A stretch of 20,000 nucleotides of DNA from Fonticula-like sp. SCN 57-25 (GCA_001724245.1 MEDX01000003.1:59787-79786), one strand, 5' to 3'; positions 1 through 20,000 are shown, numbered from the stretch's first letter. Notes: a model not told the origin generated them from the sequence alone. Made by a program: numbers and translations.

Positions 1-1716
1 CGGACGCTGCGTCGATCTCGTCCACCCTCGAGCCGAGCGCGTCGCAGTTTTCTAACTTTGCTCCTCTCCCCGCTGCCCCCGAGTCTTCCTCTACGGAGGC
101 GCTTCCCGAGCTGCGCCATGTTTTCGTGCGGTGTGCGCTCCTCTCGTACTGGGATGACCGCGAGGGGCCAAAGATCGAGCGCGTGTGGCGGAGCACCCAG
201 GATGACTCTGACGAAGACCTGTTGATGTACGTGTCGCGCCACACACTAAACGGCGAGATGATGCGCCCGTCGACAGAGGACATTGAGCCGCGCCTCTACG
301 TCCTCGGCGATCAAGGTGCGCAGGTCTTAATTGCGCAAGCTCCTCCGGCTAACACTGACCTGCAGGCGTCGCCGTAACCTCCTTTATCTTTTCGGGCTAC
401 AGCGGCGCGCAGACCTCTGCGCTCACGCTGAGCAAGTACTCTCTGTCAGTGCTTGTCCCGATGCATCTTCTCCAGCCCTACCTCGTTTACTACCCGCTGA
501 TCGCCGAGCGGCTCCCCCGTATCCTCGCGCGGCATCGTGTCGTCCAGAAAAAGGTACAAATTTGTTGTATCCCCGCCGCCGCCGCTGACGCCGCGCCCTT
601 GCCAGCTTGCCGTGGCGCCCCTTCCTGCCGGCGGCCGTCGCCCGAGCTCGGCGGACCACCTCTCGCGGCCACTGCTCGAGATGCTGTGCTCAATGGAAGA
701 GCTGTACGAGCACCACATCCCCGCCGACTACTCGCTCAGCGAGACCATCTTTGGGTCCGAGTATGAAGGGACGTACTCTGACCGGCCGTTCCTGTGGCGC
801 GCCTTTTCGTCGCACCTGCAGACGCACTGCCGGACGGTCGTGCTCGGCCACGACCTCCACACAGTCAACATTTTTATCAACTCGCTCGCGCTTCTCATGC
901 CACTCGCGCAGCGCAAGTGCTCCAGGCGCGCGCGCAAGGACACTTTCCGCAAGAATTTGAATGTTTTCTACCCCGAGGCGTTTGTCCAGGGGCTCATTTT
1001 GACGGTACGCGCGGTAATGTTTCGCGGCGGCGGCGCTAACTGCTTGCTGCAGCCCGACACGGACCGCGCGAGCATCCTGCAGGACATGCACGCGCTAGAG
1101 TCGCCCTTCCCGGTGACCGTCGTGGACCTGACGCGGCAGCTCGTCGAGCAGACCGAGGTGCTCAGCGCGTACTCGCGCACGCGCGACGAGTGCTTCAAGG
1201 ACGAGCTCCAGAACGAGCACACGGCAGAGACCGCCGCCTCCCTCATTGCGTGCGCACTTTTGACATTTATTTATGACGCCACGACTCACGCAGGAGCGCA
1301 GCAGCGGTCTGTTCCGCCCAACAAAAGAGTTTGCGCCCTTTGTGAAGCAGATGATCGCCGAGGCGTACCGCCTGCCGTACGCGCTGCGCAAGCAGCACCT
1401 GGCAGAGTCTAGGCGCATCGTAGAGCGCCGCGCACAGTCGCTCCTGACGCGCGTCGACGAGCACATCCAGTGCGCCCCTTTGCCGCCTATTTCTTTTTTC
1501 TGACCACTTCTTTTCAACAGAGACTCTGCCGCGAGCCGCAATTTGCCGCACACGGTGCTCAAGCGCGTCCGGGCCGAGCTCGGCCTCGACGACAACATTT
1601 CGTTCTACATTGTGCTGGCCGAGGCCGAGCGGATGCGGCCGGGCTCGTTCATGGAGATCCTCGCCGACCCGCACTCGATGGCCGAGAACCTGCGCGAGAT
1701 GATGGACGGCTTCTAG
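1..1716 (+). CDS. C9orf72: C9orf72-like DENN-family protein, 5'-partial; introns 316-365, 554-605, 1005-1052, 1250-1301 (acceptor uncertain), 1470-1520
   Basis: Spliced translation contains LSYWDDREGPKIERVW, SRHTLNGE, FLWRAFSSHLQTHCRTVVLG, FVQGL, PFPVTVVD and VLAEAERMRPG, collinear with C9orf72 motifs (FAYWDNILGPRV, HTLNGE, FLLNAISSHLQT, ALAEKIKPG). The frame is open from the window start and ends in TAG at 1714-1716. Confidence 0.9.
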
Positions 1717-1863
1717 ACGCTTTCGGGCAACAGTTTTTATGTGTGTATATTACTGCTGAGTGACAAACAAACAATCTATATTTGGAGCGCAGTGTCTCGG
1801 TCAGCGCGGGCGGCAAAGCACGGCCGCCTGCTACAATGCTCGCAATAAAAGGGGGCGAGAGGC

Positions 1864-2612
1864 TTAGAGGTCGCTGTACGCCAGGGTGCCCGTGGCGTCG
1901 CCGCTGCGGAAGCGCTTGAAGGCAAAGAAGGACGAGGCGCTCCACGCAAAGAACGAAAAGATGGCAAACGCAGCAGCGCCGTTGGTCTTGCCGCTCGTGG
2001 CCATGTTGGAGTTGGCGCCGACGGCATAGGCAATGCCGCCAGCAAACCAAAAGAGCGCAATGATGGCCGAAGTGGCGAGCTCGGCGATGGGCGCCTGGGG
2101 GAAACCCCGATGAGTCAGCATCGTGGCCAAAGCAAGGAAAAAGTCAGCCGTACCTTTGCGAGGAACTGCGGCGGGAGCGTGTGGCCGCGGACGTAAAGAA
2201 CAATGAAAACAACGTCAAAAATGATGCTGATGACAGCAGTGAAGACGATGAACGAGTGGAAGCCGAGCTTGAGCACCGAGATGGCAGCCGACGCCGCGCA
2301 GCTCACCGCCACAATGGCAAAAAAGATCTCAACAAGACGCAGAATAAACTAAAACCACAGTTAAAGTTAGACTTTTAATAAGACGCGCAGAATAGCCTCC
2401 CGCGCACCTTCTTGTCCTTGATCATTGAGGCCGGCGCCTCAGGGGCGCTGTAGGCACCGGGCTGCGGCGCCGACGAGACGCTCTCGGGCATGGCGGCGGG
2501 CGGAGGCGCGCTGTACTCACCCTCGTACGACTGCAACATGCACGAGTTAACCACTGAAAAGGACTCTGCCTTGCTCGGCAAAAGCGAGCGCGCGTACCTG
2601 GAAATCGGCCAT
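1864..2612 (-). CDS. MARVEL-domain four-TM membrane protein, ~187 aa; introns 2531-2597, 2349-2407, 2095-2153
   Basis: Spliced ORF MADFQSYEGEY...KFILRLVEIFFAIVA...ALFWFAGGIAYA...AAAFAIFSFFAW...SDL* has four hydrophobic helices and the MARVEL-type LRxxE start and AAAFxxF end. All three introns are GT-AG and frame-consistent. Confidence 0.8.
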
Positions 2613-2689
2613 TCTGGAAGCTCTTCTTTCTCACTTCACTGGTGCAGAGTCAAAGGGGAACAAAAACGGCCCGCGCGCTGATCCCTTGA

Positions 2690-2813
2690 TGACCATGATC
2701 TCCCTCCACTGACCATGGTCAGCGATTGCCCCATGTCCATGATAGGATCGTGACAATGGTCAGCGATTGCTTTCATGGGCATGAAAGTCAGCGTGATCAT
2801 GATTAGCGATCGC
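2690..2813. repeat. Degenerate direct-repeat array (TGACCATGGTCAGCGATTGC-like) in the divergent MARVEL/SKN7 intergenic region
   Basis: 20-mers at 2710-2729, 2751-2770 (1 mismatch) and 2794-2813 (4 mismatches), with half-copies at 2690, 2734 and 2776. CTGACCATGGTCAG at 2709-2722 is a perfect palindrome. Confidence 0.7.
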
Positions 2814-3011
2814 CTTGCTTTGAGGCAAGCCAGACGACCCCCTCCCCTTCCTTGAACCGTCGGAGGCCCTCAGCCCTCCGTGCCCGCGCGTTTTTTTCCG
2901 GTGTTTCTGCCAGCTACGCGCCTGGGCAGCTTTAGCAGAGGTCAACTCGCTTGGTGAACGCGCGGCGAATTGTTTGCGGCGGCCTGCTGAAAGGTCGATT
3001 GTGTGACGAGG

Positions 3012-4841
3012 ATGGCTGACGTGGAAGCCGACACTGCTGCCGGACTGGATGTCGCGGCGGCTTCCATCCCCGAGTTTGTTAGAAAACTGTTTCGGTACGT
3101 CGGGAGGGGTTGCTTAGGGGGAGATTGTGGCGTGCGTGTTAAAGTGATCTCGGCGCTAACACGCTATTTAATGCGCGCAGCATGCTGGACGATCCCACTT
3201 CGTCCGAGGTCGTAGAGTGGGCAGAGGATGGCGCGTCCTTCATCGTCAAGGACACGAACGAGTTTTCCAAGGAAGTCCTCCCAAAGCATTTTAAGCATAA
3301 CAACTTTGCTAGCTTTGTGCGCCAGCTCAACAAGTACGACTTTCACAAGGTGAAGGCGTCGGCGGACGGCACCGGCAAGCGCTACGGCGATTTTGCCTGG
3401 GAGTTTAAGCACCCCAACTTTACGCTGCACAGCATCGACCAGCTGAGCAATATTCGCCGGAAGCCGCCGTCGTCCAAAAAGTCGTTTGGCAAGGAGGAGT
3501 CCGAGGGCGTCAACATGATGCAGACGATGACCATGGTCCCCGGCGCCGTCCCGTCGGCCCCCGAGGTCAACCTGCTCAACCTTGGGCAGGCCGATCTCGC
3601 CAACTACCTGCAGACGCTCTCCAAGAACTACGAGACCGTCGTGCGTGACATGGTCATGGTGAAGCGCAACATGGCGGCGCAGGATCAGCTGATGCAGCAC
3701 CTCTTGCAGTACCTCGTCAACCGCGAGACGGGCAGTGCGTCTCTTTGTTTTTTTCTCTGACTGCGCTGACCCTTTTACCGCAGCCGGCGCGATTTCAAAT
3801 ATCAACCTCGCGAGCCTGCAGTCGGCGTCTGGCTACGGCGACGCGGCCGCGCGCCCGATGTCGCCGCGCCTGACCGCGCCGATGATCCCTTCGCACCTTC
3901 AGTCGCCGCAGCAGGGCGCGCTGGACCCTTCGATGTCGCCCGCCTCCATGCCGTACTCTGGCAACGTTGGCGTGCCGTCGGCGGGCATGCCGATGTCTGC
4001 CTTTTCGTCGACGCCCGCTATGTGGTCTCCCGCCGAGCTGCCGTCGTACGCCGCGTCGGCTTCGTTCGAGTCGATGGGCAACGCGACGTACCCGCAGCTG
4101 TCCGAGTCGTCCGTGAGCGCCATGGAGGAGCTGAGCCGCCGGAGCGGCACGGGCGCCGAGCCGCTCACCGTCACGACGCTGGGCATGCTGCGTCTGCGCG
4201 AGACGCCCGCCGAGCCGTCGTCCCCGCGGGCCTCAAACTCGATGCGCGTCGTACGCCAGACCTTTGTGCCGTCGTGGTCCGTGCCGCCCAAGGTGCTGCT
4301 CGTCGAGGACGACGCCACCTGCCGCATGGTCGCATCAAAGCTCCTGCAGATTGCGGGGTGCACTTTTGAGGTCGCCCACGACGGCATGGAGGCCGTCAGC
4401 AAGATGAACCTCGACAAGTACGACATTGTGCTCATGGTACGCCGCCGCCTGCGCGCACATGTTGTCATTTATTTTGGCCGCTAACGCATGGCACAGGACA
4501 TTCTCATGCCCAACATGGACGGCATCTCGGCGACGACGCAGATCCGCCAGTTTGACCCGGCGACGCCCGTCATCTCGATGACAACCAACACGTCGCGCGC
4601 AGACATCATGCGCTACATTGACACTGGCATGAACGACGTCCTCGGCAAGCCCTTCTCCAAGGAGAGCTTGATGACCATCATCCAGCGGTACTGCTCCCAC
4701 CTCGTCGACTTTCTCCAGAACCCCGGGATCGCGCCGGGCCGCGTCGACAACACGCAGGGCGGCGCGACCATCACCGAGGAGGAGGAGGCGGCCGACACGG
4801 TGCCGCCTAGCAAGAGGCTCAAGTCCGAGGTCTCCTTATAG
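3012..4841 (+). CDS. SKN7: Skn7/Prr1-like transcription factor (HSF-type DNA-binding domain, coiled coil, response-regulator receiver), ~544 aa; introns 3095-3180, 3735-3783, 4437-4496
   Basis: HSF domain EFVRKLFRML...LPKHFKHNNFASFVRQLNKYDFHKV...WEFKHPNF. Receiver domain WSVPPKVLLVEDD...YDIVLM|DILMPNMDG (phospho-acceptor Asp intact) ...ISMT...DVLGKPF. Confidence 0.95.
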
Positions 4842-4869
4842 CACGCGCACCGGCGATCGCGATCGCCGT

Positions 4870-4893
4870 GTTGTTGATGTTGTTGTTGTTGTT
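4870..4893 (+). repeat. Imperfect (GTT)n microsatellite in the SKN7 3' region
   Basis: gttgttgatgttgttgttgttgtt read directly. Confidence 0.7.
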
Positions 4894-5463
4894 TGCTGTT
4901 CGTTTCAATCTAGTAGTAGCTCGACGCCGTTGCGTCATATATGTTTGCGTTCGGAGCATGGCCTTTTCTCCCCTCTTGTCGTTTCACGCACGCGTCGCCA
5001 CCAGAGCTTGCGCCTCGCTGCGCGACATTTGTCGATGATCCACTGTGCCTTGTGTATTTCTAGTTAACTCGTTCTGGTCTTCTTTTGCGGCAGGTGGCTC
5101 CCATCTGCATTTCATGGCGTGTAGCTTTATGTGGATACTATGATACTAGCTTGTTGCCTCTGTGACGCACGAATGAATATGAACCTCTTTTACAATTGCC
5201 CCATTCCCGCGCTGAAACACCATTGGTCCACTTCAAACCGTGCGACTTTTTGTCATAAACACGGAATAGCGCCATATTTTCACGTTCTTCACCATTCCGG
5301 CCGGATATTTCCTTTTTAAGCAATAAAATTCCCAATATGGCGATGGTTTGCTTTTTCTGACGAATGGCATGCTTAGTGGGAATTGGGGCGAGGGGACCAA
5401 GGTCGGTTTCGTGGTCGGTCTCCAGCTTGTGTTGGAGGCTCCTGTCGAGAGGAGTTGTAAGCG

Positions 5464-7161
5464 ATGGTCCCTGGGGCAGAGATGCTGTCGACGTCGGGCG
5501 GAAGCTCTGTTGCTGCGCCGCCGAGCGGCCTTCGCTTCCGCGTTAACTCGCCTAATGTTCAGTACACGTCTGATCGCATTGTGAGCCGCTTCATGTATGA
5601 GGACACGTCGTGCGAGGTGACGCCGAGCGGCGAGGTTGTGGTGACGCCGAGCACGACGCAGTACACGTTCACGACGAGCACGGCGGTCCCGCGCATGGGC
5701 CTCATGCTTGTCGGCCTTGGCGGCAACAACGGCACGACGGTGGCGGCGAGCATCCTGGCCAACCGCGAAAAGATGGCGTGGCGCACCAAGGCCGGCCTTC
5801 AGCAACCCAACTACTTTGGCTCGCTGACGCAGGCGTCGACCGTGCGCCTCGGCAAGGACCCCAAGGGCGACAACATTTCGATCCCGTTCAAGGACATTCT
5901 CCCGATGGTGAACCCGAACGACATTGTCGTCGGCGGCTGGGACATTAGCGACGCCAATCTCGCCGTCGCGATGGAGCGCGCGCAGGTGCTCGAGCCCGAT
6001 CTCCAGCGCCAGGTTGCCCCCAAGCTCAGCGCCATCGTGCCGCTGCCGAGCATCTACTACCCCGACTTTATCGCCGCCAACCAGAGCGAGCGCGCCAACA
6101 ACGTGATGCGCGGGTCAAAGCAGGACAACCTGGAGCAGGTCCGCAAGGACATTCGCGACTTCCGCGCCGCCAACCAGCTCGACTCGGTCGTCGTCCTGTG
6201 GACCGCCAACACTGAGCGTTACGCCGACATCGTAGAGGGCGTCAACGACAGCGCCGACAACCTGCTCGCCGCCATCAAGGCGGGCCACTCGGAGGTTTCG
6301 CCGTCGACCGTGTTTGCCGTCGCCTGCATCCTCGAGGGTGTCCCGTTCATCAACGGATCGCCCCAGAACACTTTTGTCCCGGGTTGCGTGGAGCTCGCCG
6401 AGCGTCACCGCGTACGTTTAATGTGTTTGTAGTGTACCTTTTTATCGTTGTTGTTGCACGTCCTTGTGCTTTTGCCTTTTGTTCTTTTACTTTGCTCACC
6501 CCTTTCCGCGCAGTCCATTATTGCCGGCGACGACTTTAAGAGCGGCCAGACCAAGCTCAAGTCTGTCCTTGTTGACTTTTTGGTGAGCGCCGGCATCAAG
6601 CCGCTCTCGATCACGAGCTACAACCACCTCGGCAACAACGACGGCAAGAACCTTTCTGCCCCCTCGCAGTTCCGCTCCAAGGAGATCTCCAAGAGCAACG
6701 TGGTCGACGACATGGTCGCCTCAAACGACGTGCTGTACAAGACCGGCGAGCATCCCGACCACGTGGTCGTGATCAAGTATGTCCCCGCGGTGGGCGACAG
6801 CAAGCGCGCCATGGACGAGTACTACAACGAGATCTTTATGGGCGGCCGCAACACGATCGCGATCCACAACGTGTGCGAGGACAGCCTGCTCGCCGCGCCG
6901 CTGCTGCTCGACCTCGCCATCATCACCGAGCTCTTTTCGCGCATCCGCTTCACCAAGGGCGAGAGCAAGGATGCCGAGCCGCAGCCGTTCCACCCGGTGC
7001 TCTCGGCGCTCAGCTACCTGCTCAAGGCGCCGCTCGTGCCCCGCGGCCAGAATGTCGTCAACTCGCTGTTTAGGCAGCGCCAGGCGCTCGAGAACATTCT
7101 GCGCGCGTGCGTTGGGCTCCCGCCGCAGAACGACATGCTCCTCGAGGAGCGCGCGTTCTAG
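5464..7161 (+). CDS. INO1: Myo-inositol-1-phosphate synthase, ~531 aa; intron 6412-6513
   Basis: All four MIPS signatures are present: [30 protein letters not shown] and [10 protein letters not shown], plus [11 protein letters not shown] and CEDSLLA. The start ATG is not certain. Confidence 0.98.
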
Positions 7162-7388
7162 GCGGAGAGCGCGAAAAAAAGGGCAATTTCTTCCAGTTCT
7201 TTCAGTTCTCCGGCAAGTTTTTTCTCAATTCCCCATGATTCATTTAACTTTCTCAAGCGGGCTACAATAGAAAAGCTGTTTATTTCATTGCCTACGGCTG
7301 TTTCGCCGCCTTTTATATACAAAAACTATCGTCCACTCAAAAAGATCAGTTAAACGTCCTCGTCCAAAACCAGATGCAGCGGCACTCA

Positions 7389-7669
7389 TCAGTGTTGGCT
7401 CGAAGGCGCCGCAATGGTCCCTTCTCTCAGTTCCCTAAGCAACAGGTCAAGCTTCTCGCGCAGACGACGGAGCAACGCATCGTCGGCGATCTGCAGAGGT
7501 CGGTTAGCGCGGGATCAGCCGACATCGACGCCGTACCTCTGACGGCTGGCCAATAAGATCAAGAAGGCGCTCGACCTCCTCTTCTGCATCACCGCATAAT
7601 GACGTGAGCGGCACGGCCCCCAAAGCCAGGCGGCGCACCTGCGAGAATAATGGGCCCGCGTGCAGGCAT
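7389..7669 (-). CDS. Small spliced protein, 59 aa (MPARGPIILAEEEVERLLDLIGQPSEIADDALLRRLREKLDLLLRELREGTIAAPSSQH); introns 7584-7638, 7491-7536
   Basis: CCACCATG start context. Two introns with local-consensus donors (GTGCGC, GTACGG), CTCAC/CTAAC branch sites and TGCAG acceptors join into one frame, which ends TGA TGA. Confidence 0.8.
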
Positions 7670-7800
7670 GGTGGAGCAGCGTCGGTCTTTTGGCAGGCAC
7701 CCACACGTCTAAAGTGATGTGTCAGCACTGTGACTGGTGTGTCAGCATTGTGTGCGCCGAGCGCGCATGCCGTTGAGCACGCACGGCGAAGAGCGGCGCG

Positions 7801-8847
7801 ATGGCTGCGCATACGACTGGAATTAACTGCACACAGGACGACGCACATGCCTGCACGTTGCTCGAAACAGAAGAGGCGCATTATCATTGGCATTTCTCGT
7901 CTCGCTACAAACCGCCATCGAGTGCCGGATCTCCCCATGAGCTGATCGTCGATGCCTCGCCTGCGGCCACGCGCGACTCTGACCCGGACGACGATCTGTT
8001 TGAGCATGTCTTGTCTCTCGGCCCTCCCGAGAGCCATTTCCTTCCCATCGTGGTTGATCCCTCGACAGCGACGCGCATTGTTCGCTCGTACGATGGCGCT
8101 GCTCTTGCTGCCCTTCCACAGGCGCGCCTCGTCGTAGTGTCTTCGAGCACGCTCAAAGCCGGCACTGTGTTTCTCGTAGACGCGTCAGACTCGACTGTTA
8201 TTGGCCGCGACCGCGCGAACGACACTCGCCTGCGCGTGCCCGAGCTGCAAGTGAGCAAGCGTCACTGCGCCGTCTACTTTGACCGCTCGGCGTCGCCCGA
8301 CCGCCCCGCCCAGTGGCCGCTCGTCGTCTTCGACTATGGCTCGCAGAACGGCACATTTATAAATGGCGCGCGCCTTTCTCCCGCGCGCACACCGAGCGAG
8401 CCGACACTGTTGCGGCACGGCGCGACCCTCAGCGTCGGCGGCCTGACGTCGTTTTCCGTGCACGTCCACGGCGGGTGGCCACGGTGGTGCGACGACTGCC
8501 GCACGACCGACGCCGAACAGGGAAAGTACGACCAGCAGACGCGCGAGGCGCCCGATCCGCCCGCCAAGCCGACCGTGAGCGAGCAGTGGAGCGCGGTCGA
8601 GGAGGCAAGAACGGCGCGCGAGCACGAGCTGCGGCGGCTGAGGAGGGGCGCGGCGCCGCTGCGGAATACAAGAAAGGGAATTGATAGGGCGGCAGAGCGG
8701 CGCGCGCAGGTGGGGAGCGTGTTTGACTTGCGGCAGCAGGTAGAGGCGCAGCCGACCAATAAGCAACGCGGCGAGGCACGAGACAGGCGAGTGGGTGGAC
8801 AGGGCGGCGACGCGGCTGATAGACACGGGCTGGGGTACTCGGCATGA
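7801..8847 (+). CDS. FHA-domain protein, AGGF1-like, 348 aa, apparently intronless
   Basis: FHA motifs TVIGRD, VSKRHCAV and DYGSQNGTFING are followed by VHVH...CDDC, ELRRLRR and DRAAERR, as in AGGF1-type proteins. The C-terminal GLG is a G-patch remnant. Confidence 0.8.
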   Translation: MAAHTTGINCTQDDAHACTLLETEEAHYHWHFSSRYKPPSSAGSPHELIVDASPAATRDSDPDDDLFEHVLSLGPPESHFLPIVVDPSTATRIVRSYDGAALAALPQARLVVVSSSTLKAGTVFLVDASDSTVIGRDRANDTRLRVPELQVSKRHCAVYFDRSASPDRPAQWPLVVFDYGSQNGTFINGARLSPARTPSEPTLLRHGATLSVGGLTSFSVHVHGGWPRWCDDCRTTDAEQGKYDQQTREAPDPPAKPTVSEQWSAVEEARTAREHELRRLRRGAAPLRNTRKGIDRAAERRAQVGSVFDLRQQVEAQPTNKQRGEARDRRVGGQGGDAADRHGLGYSA

Positions 8848-9152
8848 GACTCAGCTCATAACATTTTTGATATTCATTGTTGTGTTTTTGCATTTTTTTG
8901 CCTCTCTACCTGTGTACAATATTGATACTTGCATTTCGTCAACCTGATCCTAAAACGAAAGATGCATTATTGGTTATTATTTCTTTGCTTCTCCACAGGT
9001 GCACTCTATTACTAAAAGAACAACAGCACAACTCTATAGCAAATGTGACTATGCATAATGTTGTGCTTTTTACAAGTATGCATCGTACCTATTTGTGTCA
9101 CTCTGACTCTGACGCTTGCAGACAGATCCATCCACGTGGCCAAACGGTGAGG

Positions 9153-12013
9153 ATGCCGGCGTTCAGCCCTGCGGCGCCGGTGGCCGGCAGCATCGAGCTG
9201 AGGAGCGCGCGGCTCACATGGGAGCCTGCCCCCGGCGCGCTCTCGTATGAAGTATTAATAAGCAACACGGCGGACGGCACCAACGCGCCGCCCATTCGCA
9301 TCAACGGCGGGACCGGTGCGCTGCATTACGGTTGGTTTGCAACTTGCTAACGCCCCGCCTTGCTAGTGAGGGAGTGCGAATTGAAGGGTCTTCAGCCCGA
9401 CAGCTCCTACACGGTCCTTATAGTTGTGAATTTGCGTGATTTGACACTTCGCTACCCCGAAACCACCTTTACAACGCGCGATCCCACAATTGACGCGCTC
9501 ACCCGCGTCGACAAGATCGCCTCCCGCGGAAGCCCCGTGCGCGCACTCCCCACCGTGACGCCGCCCAAGAGCACCCACTACTCGCCTCATTCGCCGCTTG
9601 CCTTGCCGTCGGAGCGGTTCGGACGGACGCTCGACACGTGCGGGATGCGCGCGACGCCTTCCCCATCACCTGCTCGCGATCCGCCTCGATTCCGCCTCGC
9701 CACACAGCCGATCCAGCGGCGATCGCCCGCGCGCCCAGGCCATACGACGGCACCTTTATCGGTTGTTGCGACGCCTCCGCGCCGTCGCGGCTTCCGTGAC
9801 GACACGGACGATCTTTCGAGCGGGTCGGATGACGATGATTCCTCTGCCGGTTCGCCGTTCGCCGTCTCGTCACCTGCAGGCGTCCGCGTGGCGCCGCGCG
9901 AAGCCGTACTGGCAAAGCTTCTCTCATCATTCACAAGCTCTTCCGACGATATTGAAGAGTCATTTGAAGACGATGTAGCAGACGACGTCGATGCCGCCGT
10001 GCATGAGACGGTCGTGTCGGTACGGCGACAGTACGAGGCTAGCGAGCGGCGATTCCTGCGCGAGAGCGCCCGGGAGCACAACACTGACGAAGAAGAGGAT
10101 TTGGACGACGAGCTGGCAGCGGGTCTTCTTGACGTTTCATATCTTCCGACGCACGCGGCAGAGTCGAACGAGCGGCTGTACAGCAGCACGCAAGACGAGC
10201 CCGAAAATGTCGACAATGTACGTAGTCTTTTTGTTATTGAAAGAAAACTAATTTGCTTCAAGGTTGATACGGCGCCATCGTCCGCGACTGTGCCCGACGC
10301 CCACGCTGCACTCAGCATGTCTCAATTGCAGGCCCCGAGCACAAAGACATTCACGCCCGTCGCTGCTCCCGACCCGCCTCGCACGACACCCCAGCAGCAC
10401 GCGAGCGCCCCAATGCCTTTTACTTCACCTTTTATGCCTTCAGCTCCTTTGGCGTCATCTCCTTTTGCCTCACCTTCACAGCCTTCTTCTTTGACGTCAT
10501 CGTCGTCGCCATTTGCTCCATTGGTCTCTTCACCGCCTATTGCTGCAAGTCAGCCCAAGAGCGCCTTCACTCAGCAACCTGTTGCTCAGCAGCCCAAGAG
10601 TGCATTCACTCAACAGCCAGTTGCTCAGCAGCAGCCATTTGCCCAGCAAACCTCTCCTCAGCAGCCATCATTTGCTCAACCCAAGGCACAGCAGCCACCT
10701 GTTGTTCAACAGCAATCTCCTCTGCAAACTGCTCAGCAAACTCCTCTGCAAACTCCTCTGCAAACTGCTCAGCAAACTGTTCAGCAAACTATTGCTCAGC
10801 CCAAGGCTCAACAACCTCTTGTTCAAGCTCAGCCAAAGGTACAACAACCTGTTGCTCAGCCCAAGAGTGCGCCGCCTTCTTCATCAACACCAGCTACCGC
10901 CCCCACTCCAGCTGCCCCGACACCCGCCGCCACTGCGCCACCCACAGAGCCCAAGCGCGTCCCACGTGGCGTCGGGTCGTTTGAAGCGCAGCGCGAAGGC
11001 GAAGCTCTGTCTGACCACTACGACGAGCTCGAAAAGCTCATGACGCAAATCCCGCCGTACGTTCCTTATTACTTTCAGTATCATGAACTTACCTTTGACT
11101 ATTATAGGAATGCGCGCAGTGATGTTGTGCGTCTCAAAATGAATATCAACAAGCGTGTTTCGCAAATCAACGCATCGCTCGAAAAGGCCGTCGAAGTGGT
11201 ACGTTTTCCCGCCTTTTTCTTTCCTTTCTTCCTTGTCACTCATGTGCATTTCAGGCCGTGCAGCTGTCTGACATTTTGGGCGCGTCCGGCGCCCTTCGCG
11301 GCTACGCTCTTCACACGCTCTGCGGCAAGCTTGTCGAGCAGGCCGCGGCGGAAAACAAGACGCGCTCGCAATTCCTTTCTATTTACCAGGCCATTGCCGC
11401 CATGCTGATCGCCGCCAAGCAGCACGACTTTTGGCCCGCGCTGCACGCGCACCTCGCGCGGTCGTGCCCCCACGTGGTGCCGTGGCGGCCGCTGCCGAGG
11501 GAGGGAGAGAGCACACGTGACTTTATGCTGCGGACGGGCCACGTGCTCGACCCGAATAATGCGAGCGGGTTTGAGGACAGCGAAAAGCACATGGAGCGCG
11601 TGTGCGGCATCTTTGCGCTGTACGCGGCGTTTATGCAGCTACCGACGCCGGCGGTGCTCAAGCACCCGCATAATGCGAGCAGGGCGTGGACGTGGGCGGC
11701 GCGGTATATTAATTTGGCGCCGCAGAGCGCGTCGCTCGATGTTTTCGGCGTGTTTTTAAAGTTCCTGGGGGATGATCTGATGCGCGCGTACGGCGGGCAG
11801 GCGATCAAGATGTTGATGTGCGCGCGGGGGCCGTTTGCGGAAAAGTACGCCGAGACGCACGCGACGGGCAAGTCGGCTGTTGTGCGGCTGCAGATCTTTA
11901 TAGACGACATGATCAAGCACAAAAAGGTGTCGATCGCGCTCGGCGAGCTGGACCCGGCGCTCTTTGAAAAGGCGCTGCAGGACCAGCAGATCATCTTTGC
12001 AAAATTCAAATAA
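9153..12013 (+). CDS. GLE1: Gle1 mRNA-export factor with an N-terminal fibronectin type III domain and a long low-complexity linker, ~885 aa; introns 9316-9366, 10218-10262, 11057-11107, 11199-11254
   Basis: The C-terminal region (KRVSQI, KLVEQA, AHLARSCPHVVP, HMERVCGIFALYAA, HPH...AWTWAARYIN, YGGQAIKML) matches GLE1-domain motifs. The frame is continuous from the FN3 exon. The start could lie further upstream because the frame is open to 8877. Confidence 0.85.
10551..10866 (+). repeat. Coding Q/P-rich tandem repeats inside GLE1
   Basis: 39-nt duplication (QPKSAFTQQPVAQ x2) at 10551-10628, 12-nt CAAACT(CCTCTG/GCTCAG) units at about 10725-10790, and recurring AQPK. Confidence 0.8.
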
Positions 12014-12348
12014 CTTATGCATTATCATTGTACTTTTAATACAGTCTGTATCATTCTTCTTTTGCTTTCGGTATGCGTGCATATGGCTCAGGCTGTATTA
12101 TGGGCGACATATCAAGGAACAAGCGTCGTACTTGACATGCACATAGGCACAATGCATTGCTCGTTTCATGTGTCTTTTTCCAAGCACTAGCACCCCTTGC
12201 TTCATGCTTATAGTCCTTGCTTTGCGCGGCGCGTTCAGGCCACGCTGCCGTTCGCGCCGCCGCCGCCGTTGCATTTGGCGCGCTCGCAGGGGCGGATTCC
12301 GATTGTTGTTTGGTGACAGGCATCCCGTGCGCGCGCCAAAACGCGGTC

Positions 12349-13879
12349 ATGTCGACATCGCTGCCGCGCGGCTTGTACCCGCCGCCCTCTGTCGGCCCCG
12401 ACGAGGACGAGCCCGAAATGGAGGAAGAGGAGGTTGAGGACGAGGAAGAGGGCGTGGACGACCTGGACGAGGAGGAGGAGGAGGATCTCGACGAGTCGGA
12501 CTCTGACGGGCCCATGCTCGTCGACCGGCGCACTGACGACGGCTTTGTCGTCATCGACGACCGCGGCGACGACGACGAGGACGCGCTCATGGACCACTAC
12601 GACCGCAGCGAAATGCTGTCTGTGCAAGCAATGATCAGCGACGCGGCGCCAATGCACCTCGGCGTGCTTCCGCCGACATCTTCCGCGGTCGTGCCGCACC
12701 AGATGCCAATCGTGCGCGCATTCACACTCACGTACGCAATGTCACTCACCAGCACGCGCATAGGCAATTGAGCCACAAAACACCGATGTGCTTGAGGTGC
12801 AGGTGTTTGAAGCCGATCGGCTACGTGGCAGCATCTTTATCGGGCGTGAGAGTAAGCTCTCATCCGTCCGCAAGCGCCTCTACGCTGATCAGGTGCGATA
12901 TATTTACGTTTCTTGCTTCAATTGCTCAATAAACATGCGCAGGTCTTTCCGCGGACGGTCCATATTGTCTTTCTGACGCCCGCCGGCGCGACGATAACCG
13001 GGCGGCAGGAGCGGACTCACCGGCTCGTCATGATTGCGATGCCGCTCGAGGGCGCGGTGCCGCCGGCGCTGCGGCTCCACGTGCGCGCAGAGGTGACGCA
13101 GCGGTCGGCGGGGACGCGCTCGGTGGGGACGCAGACGCCGTCAAAGTTTCCGCGGTTTACGTCGTTTAGCGTGGCGGTGGCGCCGGGGGTCACCGGAGAT
13201 CGGCCATACGTGTGCGATTTTAGGGTACGACCGCCGTTTTTGTGTATTGCCACTGACACAATTTTGCTTATTTTGTCGACATTATTGTTGTTTTTATTGA
13301 TTTTTTATGTGTTTTCTGGTTATTTTCCGTGTATTTTCCCTATCTGTTTCTGTGTCTGTTCCTTTGACCGCTCATATTTCCTTCATTTGTCCTTTCTTTT
13401 GTCCCTTCTTTTGACCTTTTTTCCACCAGAATTGCCTCAAGGCGTACATGAATGCTCGCGCCCTCGAAGAGCACCGTCGGATACACACTGGCGAGCGCCC
13501 CTACGCCTGCGCCGCCAAAGGCTGCGAGCGCTCCTTCCGCACCGCCACCGAGCTCGCCCGCCACAAGCGCCTGCACACTGGCGAAAAGCCGTACGTCTGT
13601 CAGGCACACAACTGCGGCAAAATGTTTCGGCGGCGGCACCACATGGTCGAGCACAGCCGCATGCACTTGCCCGACCGGCCGTTCGAGTGCGAGGTGTGCA
13701 AGCGGACGTTCAAGCACGCCGACTCGCTCAAGCGGCACTTGAAGACGCACGGGGGGGAGGCGCAGGCGACGGTGTCGCCAGAGCTGCCAATTATGTATCC
13801 GCTGAGGATGGCGGGCGAGCAGGCGCAGCAGGGGCAGGCGCAGTACGCGGGGTCGCCATTGGCGGCAATTGTACAATAG
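12349..13879 (+). CDS. C2H2 zinc-finger protein (4 fingers) with an acidic N-terminus, ~407 aa; introns 12712-12763, 12893-12942, 13225-13429
   Basis: Fingers YVCDFR|NCLKAY..HRRIH, YACAAKGC..HKRLH, YVCQAHNC..HSRMH and FECEVC..HLKTH, with TGERP/TGEKP linkers. Splicing restores finger 1. Confidence 0.9.
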
Positions 13880-14327
13880 AAGTGTCTTTGTTTGGTTTGT
13901 TGTAGAATATCAATGCATTTTTCCTTGTCAATATAGTGCCGTTTGTTTGTGTTACAGAGATAATATCCATTAATATAATAAATATTGTGTAATTTCCTGC
14001 AGGGGGTGAAAGAGAATGTGACTGGAATTTTGGCGCGCAAATCTGAAATGGGAATGTCGCTGATGATCCTCAGCAAAACTTCGACATAAATTCAAATAAT
14101 AAAAACAAAACGTTATGGTTAACAGAACCATTTACAGCGGTGTATTATTGCACAGGAGCGCGTTCTTTGTAAGCACGCCGCGGCCGTGCCGCGTCACTAT
14201 AGTTCAATAAACTTCATCCTGGTTCTCACACAGTCTGGAATCCGGGGTAGATTCGACCCCAGAGTCCGGTGTGATGCAACCTTTTCCGTCATCGCCACGC
14301 GCTCTGCCAAGGTTACCCACAGCCGGC

Positions 14328-16066
14328 ATGTCGTCGGAGCAGACCAAGGGCGCCGATGGCGTCGACAACACCGAGGCCGACAGGAACATTCAGATCTGGA
14401 AGGTCAAGAAGCTTATTAAGAGCCTCGAGGCCGCTCGCGGGTACGCCTTAAAACCTTTTTTCCCCTTTTTTGTCTGGATCTCGCTCCTGTTTCTTTCCCT
14501 TTTGCTCACCGCGCGCGCCATGCCTGCAGTAACGGCACCAGCATGATCTCGCTCATTATCCCCCCGAAGGATCAGATTGCGCGTGTGTCAAAGATGCTTG
14601 CCGACGAGTTGGGCACTGCCAATAACATCAAGAGTCGCGTCAATCGCCTGTCTGTGCTGGGCGCCATCACGTCGACCATGCAGCGCCTCAAGCTGTACAC
14701 CAAGGGTACGCGCGCGCCGCATCTTTTCTCGCCACATTATTCCTAACGCCTCTTTTTACGTGTTTTCAGTCCCGCCGAACGGCCTTATTGTGTACTGCGG
14801 CACGATCATGACCGCCGAAGGCAAGGAAAAGAAGGTCAATATTGACTTTGAGCCCTTCAAGCCGATCAACACCTCCCTGTACCTCTGCGACAACAAGTTC
14901 CACACGGAAGCCCTTTCCGAGCTCATGGAGTCTGACAGCCGCTTTGGCTTCATCATCATGGACGGTTCCGGCACCCTCTACGGCGCCGTGTCTGGCAACA
15001 CGCGCGAGGTCCTCCACAAGTTCACTGTCGATCTCCCCAAGAAGCACGGCCGCGGTGGTCAGTCCGCGCTCCGTTTCGCGCGTCTCCGTGTCGAGAAGCG
15101 CCACAATTACATGCGCAAGGTGTCTGAGCTTGCGACCCAATTTTTCATCACGAACGATCGGCCCAACGTTGCCGGCCTCGTGCTCGCCGGCTCGGCCGAC
15201 TTTAAGACCGAGCTGAGCCAGTCCGAGATGTTTGACCCGCGCCTCGCCACCAAGGTCGTCAAGATTGTCGACATTTCGTACGGCGGCGAGTCGGGCTTTA
15301 ACCAGGCCATCGAGCTCGCCGGCGAGGCGCTCAACAATGTCAAGTTCATCCAGGAGAAGAAGCTCATCCAGGCGTACTTTGACCTCATCTCGGCCGACAC
15401 GGGGCGCTACTGCTTTGGTGTCAACGACACGTTCAAGGCGCTCGACATGGGAGCGGTTGAGACGCTCATCGTGTACGAGGGGCTCGAGACGATTCGTTAC
15501 CACCTCAAAAACGCGCAGACCAACGGTACGAAATGGCGAGGAAAAGTTATTTGATCGTGATTTTGAATATTGTATTTGATTATGTTTGAAAAGATTGAAT
15601 ATTGTGCTTGAATATGATTGAAAAGTATTAGTATTGTGCTTGAATATGCTTGAAAAGTTTTAATATTGTGCTTGAGTATGTTGACATATTTTGAATATTG
15701 TGCTTGAGTATCTTGATGCTGTCCACTTTCCCATACCTTTCCCATACGTTCGCTGACACCCCCCCAGAGGAAAAGGTTCTGTTCCTCACCAACAATCAGG
15801 AGGGCGAGCAGTACAAGGACCCCGTCACCGGCGAAGAGTACGAAGTCCTCGAGAAGCTGCCCCTCATGGAGTGGTTCGCCGACAACTACAAAAAGTTTGG
15901 CGCCAACCTCGAGTTTGTCACCAACAAGTCGCCCGAGGGCTCGCAGTTTGTCAAGGGCTTTGGCGGCATTGGCGGCATCTTGCGGTACCAGGTCAACTTT
16001 AGCCAGATGGAGGAGGACGAGGACCAGGACGACATTTACCTGTCCGACAGCGACGAGGACTACTAG
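14328..16066 (+). CDS. SUP45: Eukaryotic peptide chain release factor 1 (eRF1), ~447 aa; introns 14441-14529, 14706-14769, 15526-15767
   Basis: [31 protein letters not shown] and [11 protein letters not shown] motifs plus an acidic tail. Confidence 0.99.
15563..15716 (+). repeat. AT-rich 32-bp minisatellite (~5 copies) in eRF1 intron 3
   Basis: TATTGT(GC/AT)TTGA starts at 15568, 15600, 15632, 15664 and 15696, an exact 32-bp period. Confidence 0.9.
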
Positions 16067-16417
16067 ACGCGAGGCGAACGTCTCGGTGCAGGCACGTGAC
16101 GAGTGGCGCAAATGTGACATTTGTTATTCGATATTGCGCTGTGCAGGGGCGCAATAGTTTAACGCGCGACTCAATTGGCTAGGTTTACACTTTTTTACTC
16201 CTTTTCACTACTCTTTTTCCCTCTTTCTGTTCTGTTTTTTCCTTCTATTCTTTTCGTCGTCTTTTTGGTGTGCTGCGGATGTATCTTTTCGCGCGCGCTT
16301 TTCCTTTGCGTGCTGGCCGTGATCGGCGGCATTTCAGACTCTCAATGTATACAACCGAAACAAAATTAGCGGCTCTTTATAGTAGTGTACACGGCAAAAA
16401 GCGGGTGAAATTCGGCC

Positions 16418-17370
16418 TCATTTCGTCCGAAGCGCCTGCAGACGCGGCAAAATTTCCTTTTCCACAAAGGCGATGCTCTTGAGCAGACCTAGAAAGTGTC
16501 ACGTGAGCGCGATGCAGCGCATCGTCAATGCGTGCCTTGGTCAACGTAGACGGCGCCCACGATCGCCTCCAGGGCCGTCGCCGCCATCGTCTGCGACACA
16601 TCCGTGACACCAGGCCCCACCTGCAGGCGCGTCAAATGGTTAGAGAAAGGTCAAAGAAAAGATGATTCGGACCTTGAGGTACTTTGGCACGGTGAAGCCG
16701 GCGGCGACCTGCGCAAAGAGCTGATTCGAGCGCATTTCGTGGCTCTTTGGCGTAAAATGTTCCCACTAGCAGTGCACATGATCGTGAGCATTTCAGTGTC
16801 AAGATGATGGCGGCGTACCGTGACGGGCCCGCTTGGCGTCTGCGCCACCGTCGTTAGGACGATCATGTTGAGCACGCCGTCGCCGAGCATGGCGAGCCTG
16901 CAGCCCCGCGGTGTTAGCAAACAATCCTGCGATCAAGCGGCGCACCATCTGTTGGAGAGGAGCCCCGTGCGGGTCGTGTCGCCGCCCGTCGATCCCGCCT
17001 CCTTTGACGAGAGCGTCACATTGACATAGGACGAGTGCATCAGCGCCTGCGCCAGCAGCACGCGGTCCTTGAACGACACATTCAGCTGCGCCTCTAGATC
17101 CTTCAAAGACTCCCAAAAGTCGTTTGGAAGCCGGAGGAGATCGAGATGGTTGGGCGTCAGGCGGAACTGGCCCGGCATGCGCGGGTGAAGCGTCGGCGAA
17201 GACATGTTGCGGACATCGTCCGACGTCTTTTCGGAAGAAGGCGACGCCGGCCCGGCCATGGGTGTCAGACGCTGCGCATGGCGAGATAGATCGCTCGTCT
17301 GCTGCGCGCCGCGCTGGTGCGGGGCGACGCCGCTCGATGCCGCCGCCACTTGCCGCACCGCCCGCCGCAT
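16418..17370 (-). CDS. Single RNase III-domain protein without dsRBD, degenerate active site, possible mitochondrial presequence, ~250 aa; introns 16898-16945, 16766-16818, 16621-16672, 16489-16535 (GC-AG)
   Basis: LEAQLNVSFKDRVLLAQALMHSSY, SNRWLAMLGDGVL, RSNQLFAQVA and ATALEAIVGAVYVDQG...AFVEKEILP follow the RNase III fold. The start codon is uncertain. Confidence 0.85.
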
Positions 17371-17481
17371 CAGGATGCAAACTAAACAGAGTTTGCAAAG
17401 CTGCAAACTGATCGCAGTTTGCACCGATTTGCTAACACGCAGGGCGCCAAAAAGCGCGCGGGCGTCAGCGAGGTGCAAGCA

Positions 17482-20000
17482 ATGAGCGCGAGCGCGACTT
17501 CGCCCGAGCCAATGGCCACCACGCCGCCGCTGCCCATGGAAACGGCAGAGCAACCGACTGCGAGCGCAACGGCGTCGTCGTCTAAATCGACCCCGCGCGC
17601 GCAGCCCAGCGCTTTTACAAGCATGCGCGCGCTTTCGGGCGACAAATCGGCTGTCCTCAATGTGAGCGAGCTCGCCGACGTGGTGCACGCGCAGGACGGC
17701 CAAATTTCTCGCAATGCCCTTATCAGCTCGCTTGACGTGCACCCGGACGGAACGCGCCTCGCGACGGGCGGTTTTGGTGCGATCCCGAAGCCTCATTCTT
17801 CCTCTTTGCTAACAAGGCGCCAGACAACACTGTCCGCGTGTGGGATCTCAGGTCGCTCCGCGACGCGGAAAAGCGCAGCGACTCGGCCTTTCCGAAGCTC
17901 CTGACCACGCTGAGCGATCTTCAGGGCAAGGTCATCTGCGTGCGCTGGTCAAAGGACGACGGCAGCCTTCTCGCCGGCGCCGACGACCGCACCATCATCC
18001 TCTGGAAGCGCGCGTACGCACACGATCTCACATTTTTTGGTGCTCAATTTTGTTTAGCGCCAAGACGGCCGGCGGCAACCTTGTCCAGGACGTCGAGCGC
18101 TGGAGCACCGCCGGCACTCTTCACGGCCATCGCCACGGTACGGGCAATATTTGCGTACCCTTTTTCCTCACCTCTTCCGTGCAGATATCCAGCAGATCGC
18201 GTGGTCTTCCGACGGCAACACTCTCGTCTCGTGCGACCTCGACGGCAACGTCTTTGTCTACTCTGTCCGCCCCACCCTCAGTACGCCCTTTCATTGTTTT
18301 TCTCCTCTTCTAACATGCCTTTCTCTCTTTTTCAGCCACCATCAAGACGTTCCGCATTGCCGGCGAGCGCCTCAAAACCATTGCCGTCGACCCCGCCGGC
18401 CAGTACCTCCTCGCGCAGTCCCCCTCTACCGCCTTTATCATCCGCATGTCCGACTATGAACCCGATGGCGCCCTCTCCACCTTTTACCAAGGCTCCTTTG
18501 AACCTCCCGTGATGCGCTCGAGCTGGACCGCCGACGGCGCCCACATTGTCACCTGCAACGGCGTCACCGACGCGCGCCCCGCCGCGCCCATTGTGCAGCG
18601 CCGCAGCTGGCTCAACCCCTCCGAGTGCGTGCCAATCGTGCTCGCCGGCCACCGCGACACTGTCCGCCTCGCCGTCGCCTCCCCTGTCCTGTACGCAGCC
18701 GGCGCCGGCGCCTCCAACTTTACGTGGACGCTCCTCTGCAGCAACGACCGCACCTCGACGCTGTGGCGGCTCGGCGAAGACTCGCGCGACGCGACGCTCC
18801 AAATGGTGTTTACAAACGTCATTTCCGACGTCGCGTGGTTCTCTGACGGCTCTGCTTTTCTCCTGTGCGTCGGCAAGAGCGTTTATCTGTGCGAGCTGGC
18901 GGGAACGCCGCTCGGCGTCGGCGACCCGGTGCCGCGCGCGGCGCTCCAAAAGCAGTGGGCCGACGTCGGCATGCGGCCTGTATCGACCATTCTGCCCGAC
19001 GTGGCGGTGCCGGCGGTGCCGCCGCCGGGGTTCGCGGCAGAGGCGGCGGGGATCGTCGCGGCGGTGCAGCAGCCGCAGAGCCCCGTAAAGGTGACAGTGC
19101 AGGCGCAGAGGAAGGCGGCGATTGCGGCGCCGCTGACGCCGATGCAGACGGGGACGGCGGCGTCGAGCACGGCGAGCGCAGAGCAGCAGGTGAGTGTGAC
19201 AAAGGAAGGTCGCAAGAGAATTCAGCCTGTACTCGTCCAGAGGTACGAATGCAGGGGTTAATTGGAGGGGACTGAAAAGGGTTTAATGGCTTTTTGGTGA
19301 TTTTATGTGTGTGTTTCGGTGCTTTTTGGTACTTTTTCGTGTTTGTTTTGGTGCTTTTTGGCACTTTTTTGGCACTTTTTTGGTACTCTTCATGCCTTTT
19401 TTCATGTTTTTCCAATGCCTTTTTCATGTCTTTCCAATGCCTTTTTGTTACTTTTTAGTGCTTTTTCGGTCCATTCCCATTGCTTTACCTAACACCCCTC
19501 TAGTCTTCAAGAGCAAACACCGACATCTTCCGACACTCCCCCCTCTGACATGCAGCGAAGCGCCGCCGAGTCACGCATGGCCATCGAACTCGTCGGCACT
19601 GCCCAGCCAGTAACGGCGACGGCGGCAGAGGAAAGTGCAGGGGCGAGGCACAGAGCGGCGGACGACGAGGGATCGCCCAGAAAGAAGAAGCGCCACGTGG
19701 TTGCCGTACGAAAGTTGAATTTGATTGGAATGTTACTCACAATGCTCTTTTTAATGCTATTATTGATGATGGTATTAATGCTCTTTTTGATGCTATTATT
19801 AATGTTGTTATTAATGTTGTTTTTTGATGTCGCATTTTTTTAATTTTTGGTCACTTTTCATCATGTTTTCTTCATATTTGTGTCATTTTCACTTTGTTTT
19901 CGTCACTTTTCTACCACTTTTCTGTCACTTTTCTCCACTTTCCACCCCCTTTTCCTTCCACTCCTTTCTTCACAGTCCCTCCCCGTATCCCCTCCCCCAC
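17482..20000 (+). CDS. HIR1: HIRA/Hir1 WD40 histone chaperone, 3'-partial; introns 17777-17823, 18014-18057, 18138-18184, 18281-18335, 19243-19503, 19706-19975
   Basis: ISSLDVHPDGTRLATGG, VICVRWS, VERW...LHGH..DIQQIAWS, DPAGQYL and RSSWTADGAHI, plus the Asf1-binding B-motif QQVSVTKEGRKRIQP. The start codon is uncertain. Confidence 0.9.

Follow-up and report, generated by a model that had tools for sequence, protein, structure and literature searches.

Gene and Intron Content of the Window

The window analysed here, a 20 kb stretch of DNA (MEDX01000003.1:59787-79786, assembly GCA_001724245.1) from a single uncultured microbial eukaryote, contains 11 gene models with 34 introns, and every one of these introns has C at position +4 of its 5' splice site (the donor). 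Position +4 is the meeting point of the intron with position 5 of the U1 small nuclear RNA (snRNA) and with the methylated A of the ACAGAGA box in U6. The invariance had been noticed in a preliminary description of the window made from the sequence alone, in which a rewired recognition of donors by U1 or U6 was proposed, with a U1 5' end such as ACGUAC, a U6 box such as ACGGAGA or an altered METTL16/SNRNP27K as candidate causes. For the present analysis the gene models were rebuilt independently from open reading frame (ORF) structure, Pfam and homologues, and they are listed below with positions counted from the first letter of the window.

3-1716, plus strand: g1, C9orf72-like gene
2612-1864, minus strand: g2, MARVEL gene
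3012-4841, plus strand: g3, Skn7-like gene (HSF DNA-binding domain and receiver)
5464-7161, plus strand: g4, inositol-3-phosphate synthase (INO1)
7669-7393, minus strand: g5, ORF of 59 amino acids, without homology support
7801-8847, plus strand: g6, FHA protein
9153-12013, plus strand: g7, GLE1
12349-13879, plus strand: g8, C2H2 zinc-finger protein
14328-16066, plus strand: g9, eRF1
17205-16433, minus strand: g10, RNase III-domain protein
17482 to past the window end, plus strand: g11, HIRA

A consensus-free dynamic-programming gene finder was rejected, as it fused genes and invented long introns. The G+C content of the window is 58-59%, introns make up 13.6% of it, and intron density, as far as the window goes, amounts to 34 introns across 11 genes with 14.1 kb of exon, or about 3.1 per gene.

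The Donor Consensus and Intron Anatomy

Among the 34 donors, +1 is G without exception, +2 is T in 33 and C in one, and +3 is A in 23, G in 10 and C in one. C occupies +4 in 34/34, with T at this position in 0/34, and is followed by G at +5 in 33 introns and A in the remaining one, while +6 is C in 17, A in 8, T in 6 and G in 3. On the exon side, G is found at -1 in 24/34 and A at -2 in 13/34. GTACG (21) and GTGCG (10) together account for 31/34 donors, the three others being GTACAA at 554 on the plus strand and, on the minus strand, GTCCGA at 16672 and GCACGC at 16535, all of which keep C at +4; GTAAG, GTGAG and GTATG are represented by 0/34. The counts at +4 and +5 given in the preliminary description, its 31 GTACG or GTGCG donors and its three exceptions were thus borne out, position by position, by the independent gene models. 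The information over +3 to +6 is about 5.0 bits, nearly all of it at +4 and +5 (own calculation from the donor counts). The donor consensus of the lineage is rigid and can be written (M)AG/GTRCGN, the slash marking the exon-intron boundary, with C at +4 as invariant as G at +1.

In other respects these are ordinary U2-type GT-AG introns, with 33 GT and one GC donors, AG 3' ends, a reading frame restored on removal and a branch motif. Thirty of them are 44-102 nucleotides (nt) long and four are 205-270 nt. A YTNAY motif lies no more than 45 nt from the 3' end in 32/34, mostly as CTAAC, CTGAC or CTCAC at 11-23 nt, and was not found for 12732-12831 nor, within the search window, for 19706-19975. 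AG ends all 34 introns, the last one with CAG at 19975, and the acceptor is YAG in 32/34. The U12-type donor consensus is RTATCCTT, and U12-type introns were rejected, since T at +4 and the ATCC core are absent from all donors. The individual introns are as follows.

316-365, plus strand: g1 intron 1, GTGCGC; 50 nt, forced by frame; CTAAC 13 nt from the 3' end
554-605, plus strand: g1 intron 2, GTACAA (the +5 A exception); 52 nt, forced by frame; one strain difference at 567; zero GTRCG candidates upstream of the Pfam C9orf72 match
1005-1052, plus strand: g1 intron 3, GTACGC; 48 nt, stop-free and in frame; the call uses GTACGC, GCTAAC and CAG only and is weak; read-through yields surplus residues relative to the Pfam profile
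1250-1301, plus strand: g1 intron 4, GTGCGC; 52 nt, forced by frame; CTCAC branch
1470-1520, plus strand: g1 intron 5, GTGCGC; 51 nt, in-frame stop; CTGAC branch
2531-2597, minus strand: g2 intron 1, GTACGC; 67 nt, forced by frame, in-frame stop
2349-2407, minus strand: g2 intron 2, GTGCGC; 59 nt, forced by frame; CTAAC branch
2095-2153, minus strand: g2 intron 3, GTACGG; 59 nt, forced by frame; MARVEL profile covered up to 70 by exon 3 and from 73 onwards by exon 4
3095-3180, plus strand: g3 intron 1, GTACGT; 86 nt, forced by frame; HSF_DNA-bind profile match begins, at its position 8, with the first residue of exon 2
3735-3783, plus strand: g3 intron 2, GTGCGT; 49 nt, forced by frame, in-frame stop
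4437-4496, plus strand: g3 intron 3, GTACGC; 60 nt, in-frame stop; Response_reg position 48 is the last residue of exon 3 and 49 the first of exon 4
6412-6513, plus strand: g4 intron, GTACGT; gapless junction against 8 homologues; in X2 (a related strain, see below) 1-nt and 3-nt deletions and a substitution inside
7584-7638, minus strand: g5 intron 1, GTGCGC; 55 nt, forced by frame; CTCAC branch
7491-7536, minus strand: g5 intron 2, GTACGG; 46 nt, forced by frame; CTAAC branch
9316-9366, plus strand: g7 intron 1, GTGCGC; 51 nt, in-frame stop; CTAAC branch
10218-10262, plus strand: g7 intron 2, GTACGT; 45 nt, in-frame and stop-free; called on signals only, weak
11057-11107, plus strand: g7 intron 3, GTACGT; 51 nt, in-frame and stop-free; called on signals only, weak
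11199-11254, plus strand: g7 intron 4, GTACGT; 56 nt, forced by frame; GLE1 profile begins in the next exon
12732-12831, plus strand: g8 intron 1, GTACGC; 100 nt; the only acceptor that keeps the frame; no clear branch motif; weakest call
12893-12942, plus strand: g8 intron 2, GTGCGA; 50 nt, forced by frame
13225-13429, plus strand: g8 intron 3, GTACGA; 205 nt, forced by frame; interrupts the first zinc finger, ahead of the zf-C2H2 matches in exon 4; T-rich
14441-14529, plus strand: g9 intron 1, GTACGC; gapless junction against 8 homologues
14706-14769, plus strand: g9 intron 2, GTACGC; gapless junction against 8 homologues
15526-15767, plus strand: g9 intron 3, GTACGA; junction without gap against 8 homologues; contains a 32-nt tandem repeat
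16898-16945, minus strand: g10 intron 1, GTGCGC; 48 nt, in-frame stop; CTAAC branch
16766-16818, minus strand: g10 intron 2, GTACGC; 53 nt, forced by frame; in X2 6 substitutions and 2 indels inside, donor +1 to +5 the same
16621-16672, minus strand: g10 intron 3, GTCCGA (the +3 C exception); 52 nt, forced by frame; 3 GT candidates; X2 differs inside, and in the donor at +6 only
16489-16535, minus strand: g10 intron 4, GCACGC (GC-AG); 47 nt, forced by frame; the X2 base at 16534 differs (2 contigs), giving GTACGC
17777-17823, plus strand: g11 intron 1, GTGCGA; gapless junction against 12 homologues; in X2 7 substitutions and 2 indels inside, donor the same
18014-18057, plus strand: g11 intron 2, GTACGC; 44 nt, forced by frame; junction adjoins a variable alignment loop, so that homologue support is approximate
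18138-18184, plus strand: g11 intron 3, GTACGG; gapless junction against 12 homologues
18281-18335, plus strand: g11 intron 4, GTACGC; junction agrees with 12 homologues; in X2 4 substitutions and 2 indels inside
19243-19503, plus strand: g11 intron 5, GTACGA; 261 nt, in-frame stop; directly after the HIRA_B motif; tandem repeats
19706-19975, plus strand: g11 intron 6, GTACGA; predicted from the missing C-terminal part of HIRA and a read-through that soon meets a stop; acceptor TCACAG, only 25 nt from the window end, so that the downstream exon is not verifiable and the call is weak

The four long introns (13225-13429, 15526-15767, 19243-19503 and 19706-19975) are T-rich and contain internal tandem repeats with units of 10-64 nt, for example a 32-nt unit repeated 4.8 times in intron 3 of eRF1 and several arrays in the last two HIRA introns. 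Repeats also occur in coding sequence, the middle of the GLE1 gene (10551-10858) being an array of imperfect 12-39-nt repeats that encodes a Q/P/A-rich region with repeated QQPVAQQPKSAFTQ-like units.

Evidence for a Genuine C at +4

Most of the donors are fixed by the reading frame, as the preliminary description had held: in 24 of the 33 complete introns the length is not divisible by 3, and another 6 contain an in-frame stop, so that 30/33 are forced. The introns 1005-1052, 10218-10262 and 11057-11107 are in-frame and stop-free and are called from their splice signals alone, three in-frame introns having been spotted with the help of the consensus in the preliminary description too, and the donor at 9316, which it had described as ambiguous, has 6 GT candidates, a single one of which is GTRCG. 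For the 33 complete introns there are 289 frame-compatible GT donor candidates, including 42 GTRCG, 30 of which are the donors used; among the unchosen candidates GTRCG occurs in 12/257. Eleven junctions were fixed independently of the donor consensus, by homologues or by the continuity of Pfam profiles, namely three in eRF1 and one in INO1 (8 homologues each), one each in the Response_reg, HSF and MARVEL profiles, and four in HIRA (12 homologues, one junction approximate), and GTRCG is found in 11/11.

A chance origin of the invariance was set against the background of the window, in which C follows GTN at 226/665 GT sites in sense exons (34%). The preliminary description had left open an explanation by intron base composition, which is excluded within the window, as intron interiors contain 24% C and 40% T. 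A mere preference for pyrimidines is ruled out as well, because such T-rich introns would then have mostly T at +4. Common descent of the introns does not explain the pattern either, since an all-against-all blastn-short comparison of the 34 introns gave no match between different introns at E <= 0.01, that is, no detectable shared sequence. Outside the introns, 47 GTRCG sites lie unused in sense exons, compared with 41 on the antisense strand, and GTRCG is therefore necessary but not sufficient for use as a donor. GTGAGT occurs once in a gene, at 19190, where it is located within the coding HIRA_B motif and does not serve as a donor. A loose donor-branch-acceptor pattern matched the window 31 times, where simulated sequence averaged 15, and was not counted as evidence, because it is not specific.

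Strain differences offered a further view of the same introns. The window is metagenomic: a bioreactor run (X1) contains all of its sampled words, parts of it also occur in other runs from wastewater, aquatic sources and a "fungus metagenome", and X2-X4 contain strains or portions of it. The 19 runs listed include no RNA run, and an exact 40-mer taken from the window had no match in the genome contigs scanned. The X2 contigs represent a related strain whose differences from the window lie mostly in the called introns, with 23/40 of the substitutions and 9/12 of the indels listed falling there (a further 315 and 37 exist), and many of the strain indels are not multiples of three. Donor positions +1 to +5 are changed in two cases among these differences. 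One is the X2 base at 16534, which turns the sole GC donor GCACGC into GTACGC, and the other is a deletion at 7534 in X5 and X6. C at +4 persists in the three otherwise non-consensus donors and in the diverged strain. Taken together, the observation is confirmed for the window, and C at +4 is itself under selection.

The deletion at 7534 belongs to a small cluster at 7534-7538, where, at the exon/donor boundary, the X5 and X6 contigs (one each, depth 11-12) have deletions of 3 nt (7534) and 1 nt (7538). The 3-nt deletion removes donor bases of the g5 intron 7491-7536, and the cluster could reflect a different organism, an effect of alignment or an allele that has no such donor. At 18918, run X6 has a 1-nt insertion (C) in a HIRA coding exon at about two thirds of the local depth, which would be a frameshift if it came from this organism.

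Two further explanations concern the consensus itself. The invariance could be an artefact of consensus-guided picking, or the window could be unrepresentative of the genome, and to this extent it counts that the introns at 1005, 10218 and 11057 were called on signals, that the loose pattern scan is non-specific and that the sequence seen comprises 20 kb only. It is nevertheless very improbable, as frame or stop forces nearly all complete introns, the homology-fixed junctions are uniformly GTRCG, strain differences are concentrated in the called introns, and the 11 gene models can all be closed with no donor of another type, the single GTGAGT in a gene being coding. The shared donor could alternatively have been spread recently by one intron family, similar to the introner families of Micromonas with their own typical donors (PMC3879977), an idea that the lack of any match between different introns at the threshold above reduces to a negligible probability.

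Comparison with Known Lineages

A lineage-wide +4 C donor is, according to published accounts, an already known phenomenon of few lineages, and a U1 with ACGUAC exists in nature. In Mastigamoeba balamuthi, a U1 candidate with ACGUAC is reported together with donors that prefer GUGCGC, in which +6C is unmatched, and a co-evolved U1 is reported for Entamoeba by the same authors (Roy & Bowser 2022, bioRxiv 10.1101/2022.06.08.495308). The donors of the window resemble this Mastigamoeba type, combining C at +4 and G at +5 with a preferred C at +6 (17/34, against T in 6/34) that has no snRNA base to match, as well as a weak exon side. The reported G+C content (60.7% against 58-59% here) and introns per gene (3.4 against 3.1 here) are similar too. 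The two differ in that +3 is mainly G in M. balamuthi and mainly A here, that its mean intron is reported as 137 bp whereas most introns here are about 50 nt, and that it is reported to be without eukaryotic histidine kinases whereas a Skn7-type response regulator is present here.

Among green algae, Ostreococcus is described with an "atypical consensus GTGCGTG" of 4.8 bits outside chromosome 2, for which possible snRNA changes were raised (Irimia & Roy 2008, PMC2483917), and the canonical introns of Micromonas are reported to favour AG/GTGCGT (PMC3879977). These Mamiellophyceae share with the window a strong atypical +4C +5G consensus (4.8 bits there and about 5.0 here over +3 to +6) and a GC-rich compact genome. 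In contrast to the window, where +3 is A in 23/34, +6 is T in 6/34 and -2 is A in 13/34, they have G at +3, T at +6 and a conserved exon AG; they are green algae and not amorphean, their U1 is reported as standard, and they are intron-poor outside one chromosome, unlike the 34 introns in 11 genes counted here. Micromonas further differs in its reported branch motif GACTGACG, which lies far from the acceptor.

Thecamonas trahens, an opisthokont relative, likewise prefers C at the fourth intron position, although for this species only a preference is reported, with a standard U1 (bioRxiv 10.1101/2022.06.08.495308); it is not among the best 120 matches in the INO1 or eRF1 searches. In Saccharomycotina, +4 is described as the most variable donor position, with changes almost only from A to U (Parker et al. 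2023, PMC10581693). The +4U donors, linked there to the loss of METTL16/SNRNP27K, resemble those of the window as a lineage-wide move off +4A, but the change is A to U, the S/W ratio is little changed and U1/U6 are invariant, while +4 here is C and never T (PMC10581693). Among titles and abstract openings in the literature, no GTRCG, GTACGT or GTGCGT donor consensus was found described for fungi.

Affiliation of the Organism

The genes of the window point in different directions. For the HSF part of g3, the named proteins among the best 120 matches are all fungal, most of them with the Skn7 architecture (HSF and receiver), and identity reaches 51-53% at best. In the INO1 tree the window protein groups with two metagenomic proteins and then with Amoebozoa (Balamuthia, Dermamoeba and Paradermamoeba; support 96/92), apart from 14 fungal rows. 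An eRF1 exon has no more than 81% identity to any named protein among the best 120, with chytrids at the top, and the eRF1 tree leaves its placement unresolved on a branch about five times the median length. HIRA (17482-19705) is very divergent: in a search of 1.84 billion representative proteins, the full-length relatives listed are 23-35% identical, the best identity among the matches listed is 42% over a fragment of 214 amino acids, only its own fragment was matched at E <= 1e-30, with identities of 27-33% for the matches that follow, and the named proteins among the top ten matches are from a cestode and a chytrid, with one unplaced HIRA/HIR1 record.

From these protein sequences the organism may tentatively be called a fast-evolving amorphean without firm placement, resembling fungi in its Skn7 and Amoebozoa in its INO1. 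Membership in Archamoebae seems unlikely, because M. balamuthi is reported to be without eukaryotic histidine kinases. The C9orf72-like gene (3-1716) and the Skn7-type gene (3012-4841) coexist in one genome, and C9orf72 is not known from most fungi. A 1366-nt contig of a Microbacterium arborescens assembly (L010:418-1170) encodes a fragment of a eukaryotic eRF1 with 77% identity to that of the window, which is probably eukaryotic contamination of a bacterial assembly.

Possible Readers of C at +4

No Rfam family, and so no snRNA gene, was found in the window at gathering thresholds or at E <= 1. The standard 5' end of U1 (ACUUAC) would pair with four intron bases only, because C predominates over U at +6 and conservation on the exon side is only moderate; with donors such as tgc/GTGCGC or cac/GTACGC the pairs would fall at +1, +2, +3 and +5 only. 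A U1 with G opposite +4 would instead form five contiguous pairs with GUACG, with a G-U wobble where +3 is G, which would make +6 and the exon positions dispensable and would match the observed logo, and U6 would then take over, mainly via +5G. Information confined to +1 to +5, a +6 that is mostly C and an exon side as weak as in Mastigamoeba lean towards a G opposite +4 in U1. A U1 with an ACGUAC-type 5' end is accordingly regarded, tentatively and with a probability somewhat short of even, as the most likely reader of +4 C, and the rewired U1 suggested in the preliminary description seems reasonable, indirectly, from the logo and from the published Mastigamoeba precedent.

Several points weigh against such a U1. 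The case is built on the shape of the donor logo and one precedent, and the sample consists of 34 introns from 20 kb, three of them called on the consensus alone. Of the three +4C lineages in print, two, namely the Mamiellales (five species) and Thecamonas trahens, are reported with a standard U1 (bioRxiv 10.1101/2022.06.08.495308), and U1 ACUUACC and U6 ACAGA are reported as invariant in about 240 species whatever their preference at +4 (PMC10581693).

The same reports favour an explanation in which the consensus is real and both U1 (ACUUAC) and U6 (ACAGAGA) are standard, C at +4 being a tolerated mismatch that is read by proteins or through a changed modification of U6, for example after loss or change of METTL16/SNRNP27K. 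The GYGCGY donors of the five Mamiellales species are reported to go with such a U1, the pairing sequences stayed constant across switches between +4 A and U (PMC10581693), and yeasts are reported to tolerate a +4 mismatch with U1 (bioRxiv 10.1101/2022.06.08.495308). In the Mamiellales, though, the exon AG and +6T of AG/GTGCGT preserve pairing with the standard U1, features that are scarce in the window, where many donors (e.g. tgc/GTGCGC) would be left with four intron pairs; a pyrimidine preference, moreover, predicts mostly T at +4 in introns with 40% T. This explanation is a serious if less probable one, and it stands close behind the ACGUAC-type U1. Compensation could also reside in U6, through a change of the central A of ACAGAGA to G (ACGGAGA), alone or with a change in U1. 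Cyanidioschyzon merolae is reported to have U at this same position of U6, in a box that is otherwise near-universal (PMC10581693). Metagenome contigs were scanned with an exact 25-nt motif, by which a U6 differing elsewhere would be missed, and 9 ACGGAGA loci (L001-L009) were recovered, all above the Rfam U6 threshold (59-110 bits against 44), showing that such U6 genes exist in metagenomes, but these are not attributable to the organism, as their GC ranges over 34-60%, their flanks differ and some are clearly degenerate copies. The scan neither supports nor excludes the idea, and a compensating U6 is considered improbable. Among these putative U6 genes, the conserved core is followed by one additional base in L005 and L009, while a second degenerate copy is present in L008.

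Implications for Spliceosomal Evolution

Lineages in which a base other than A is fixed at +4 are natural experiments on how the spliceosome reads donors, and the published +4C cases are few and split between a standard U1 (Mamiellales and Thecamonas) and a compensated one (Mastigamoeba). The organism of the window adds a new case, in which about 5 bits over +3 to +6 occur together with a moderate-to-high intron density. An inverse link between intron number and donor strength has been proposed (Irimia & Roy 2008, PMC2483917), and a rigid donor with about three introns per gene is not predicted by it. If the organism lay within Archamoebae, the case would be the already-reported Mastigamoeba condition. 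It may otherwise be, as a rather doubtful but real possibility, that GTRCG was adopted independently across the whole intron set of an unplaced eukaryote which is not clearly an archamoeba and has about three introns per gene, with a co-evolved G at the facing position of U1 and perhaps also of U6. An independent G opposite +4 in U1 would then represent a second case of co-evolution between an snRNA and the splice site, and would clearly depart from the rule that only intron-poor genomes give rise to rigid donor consensuses.

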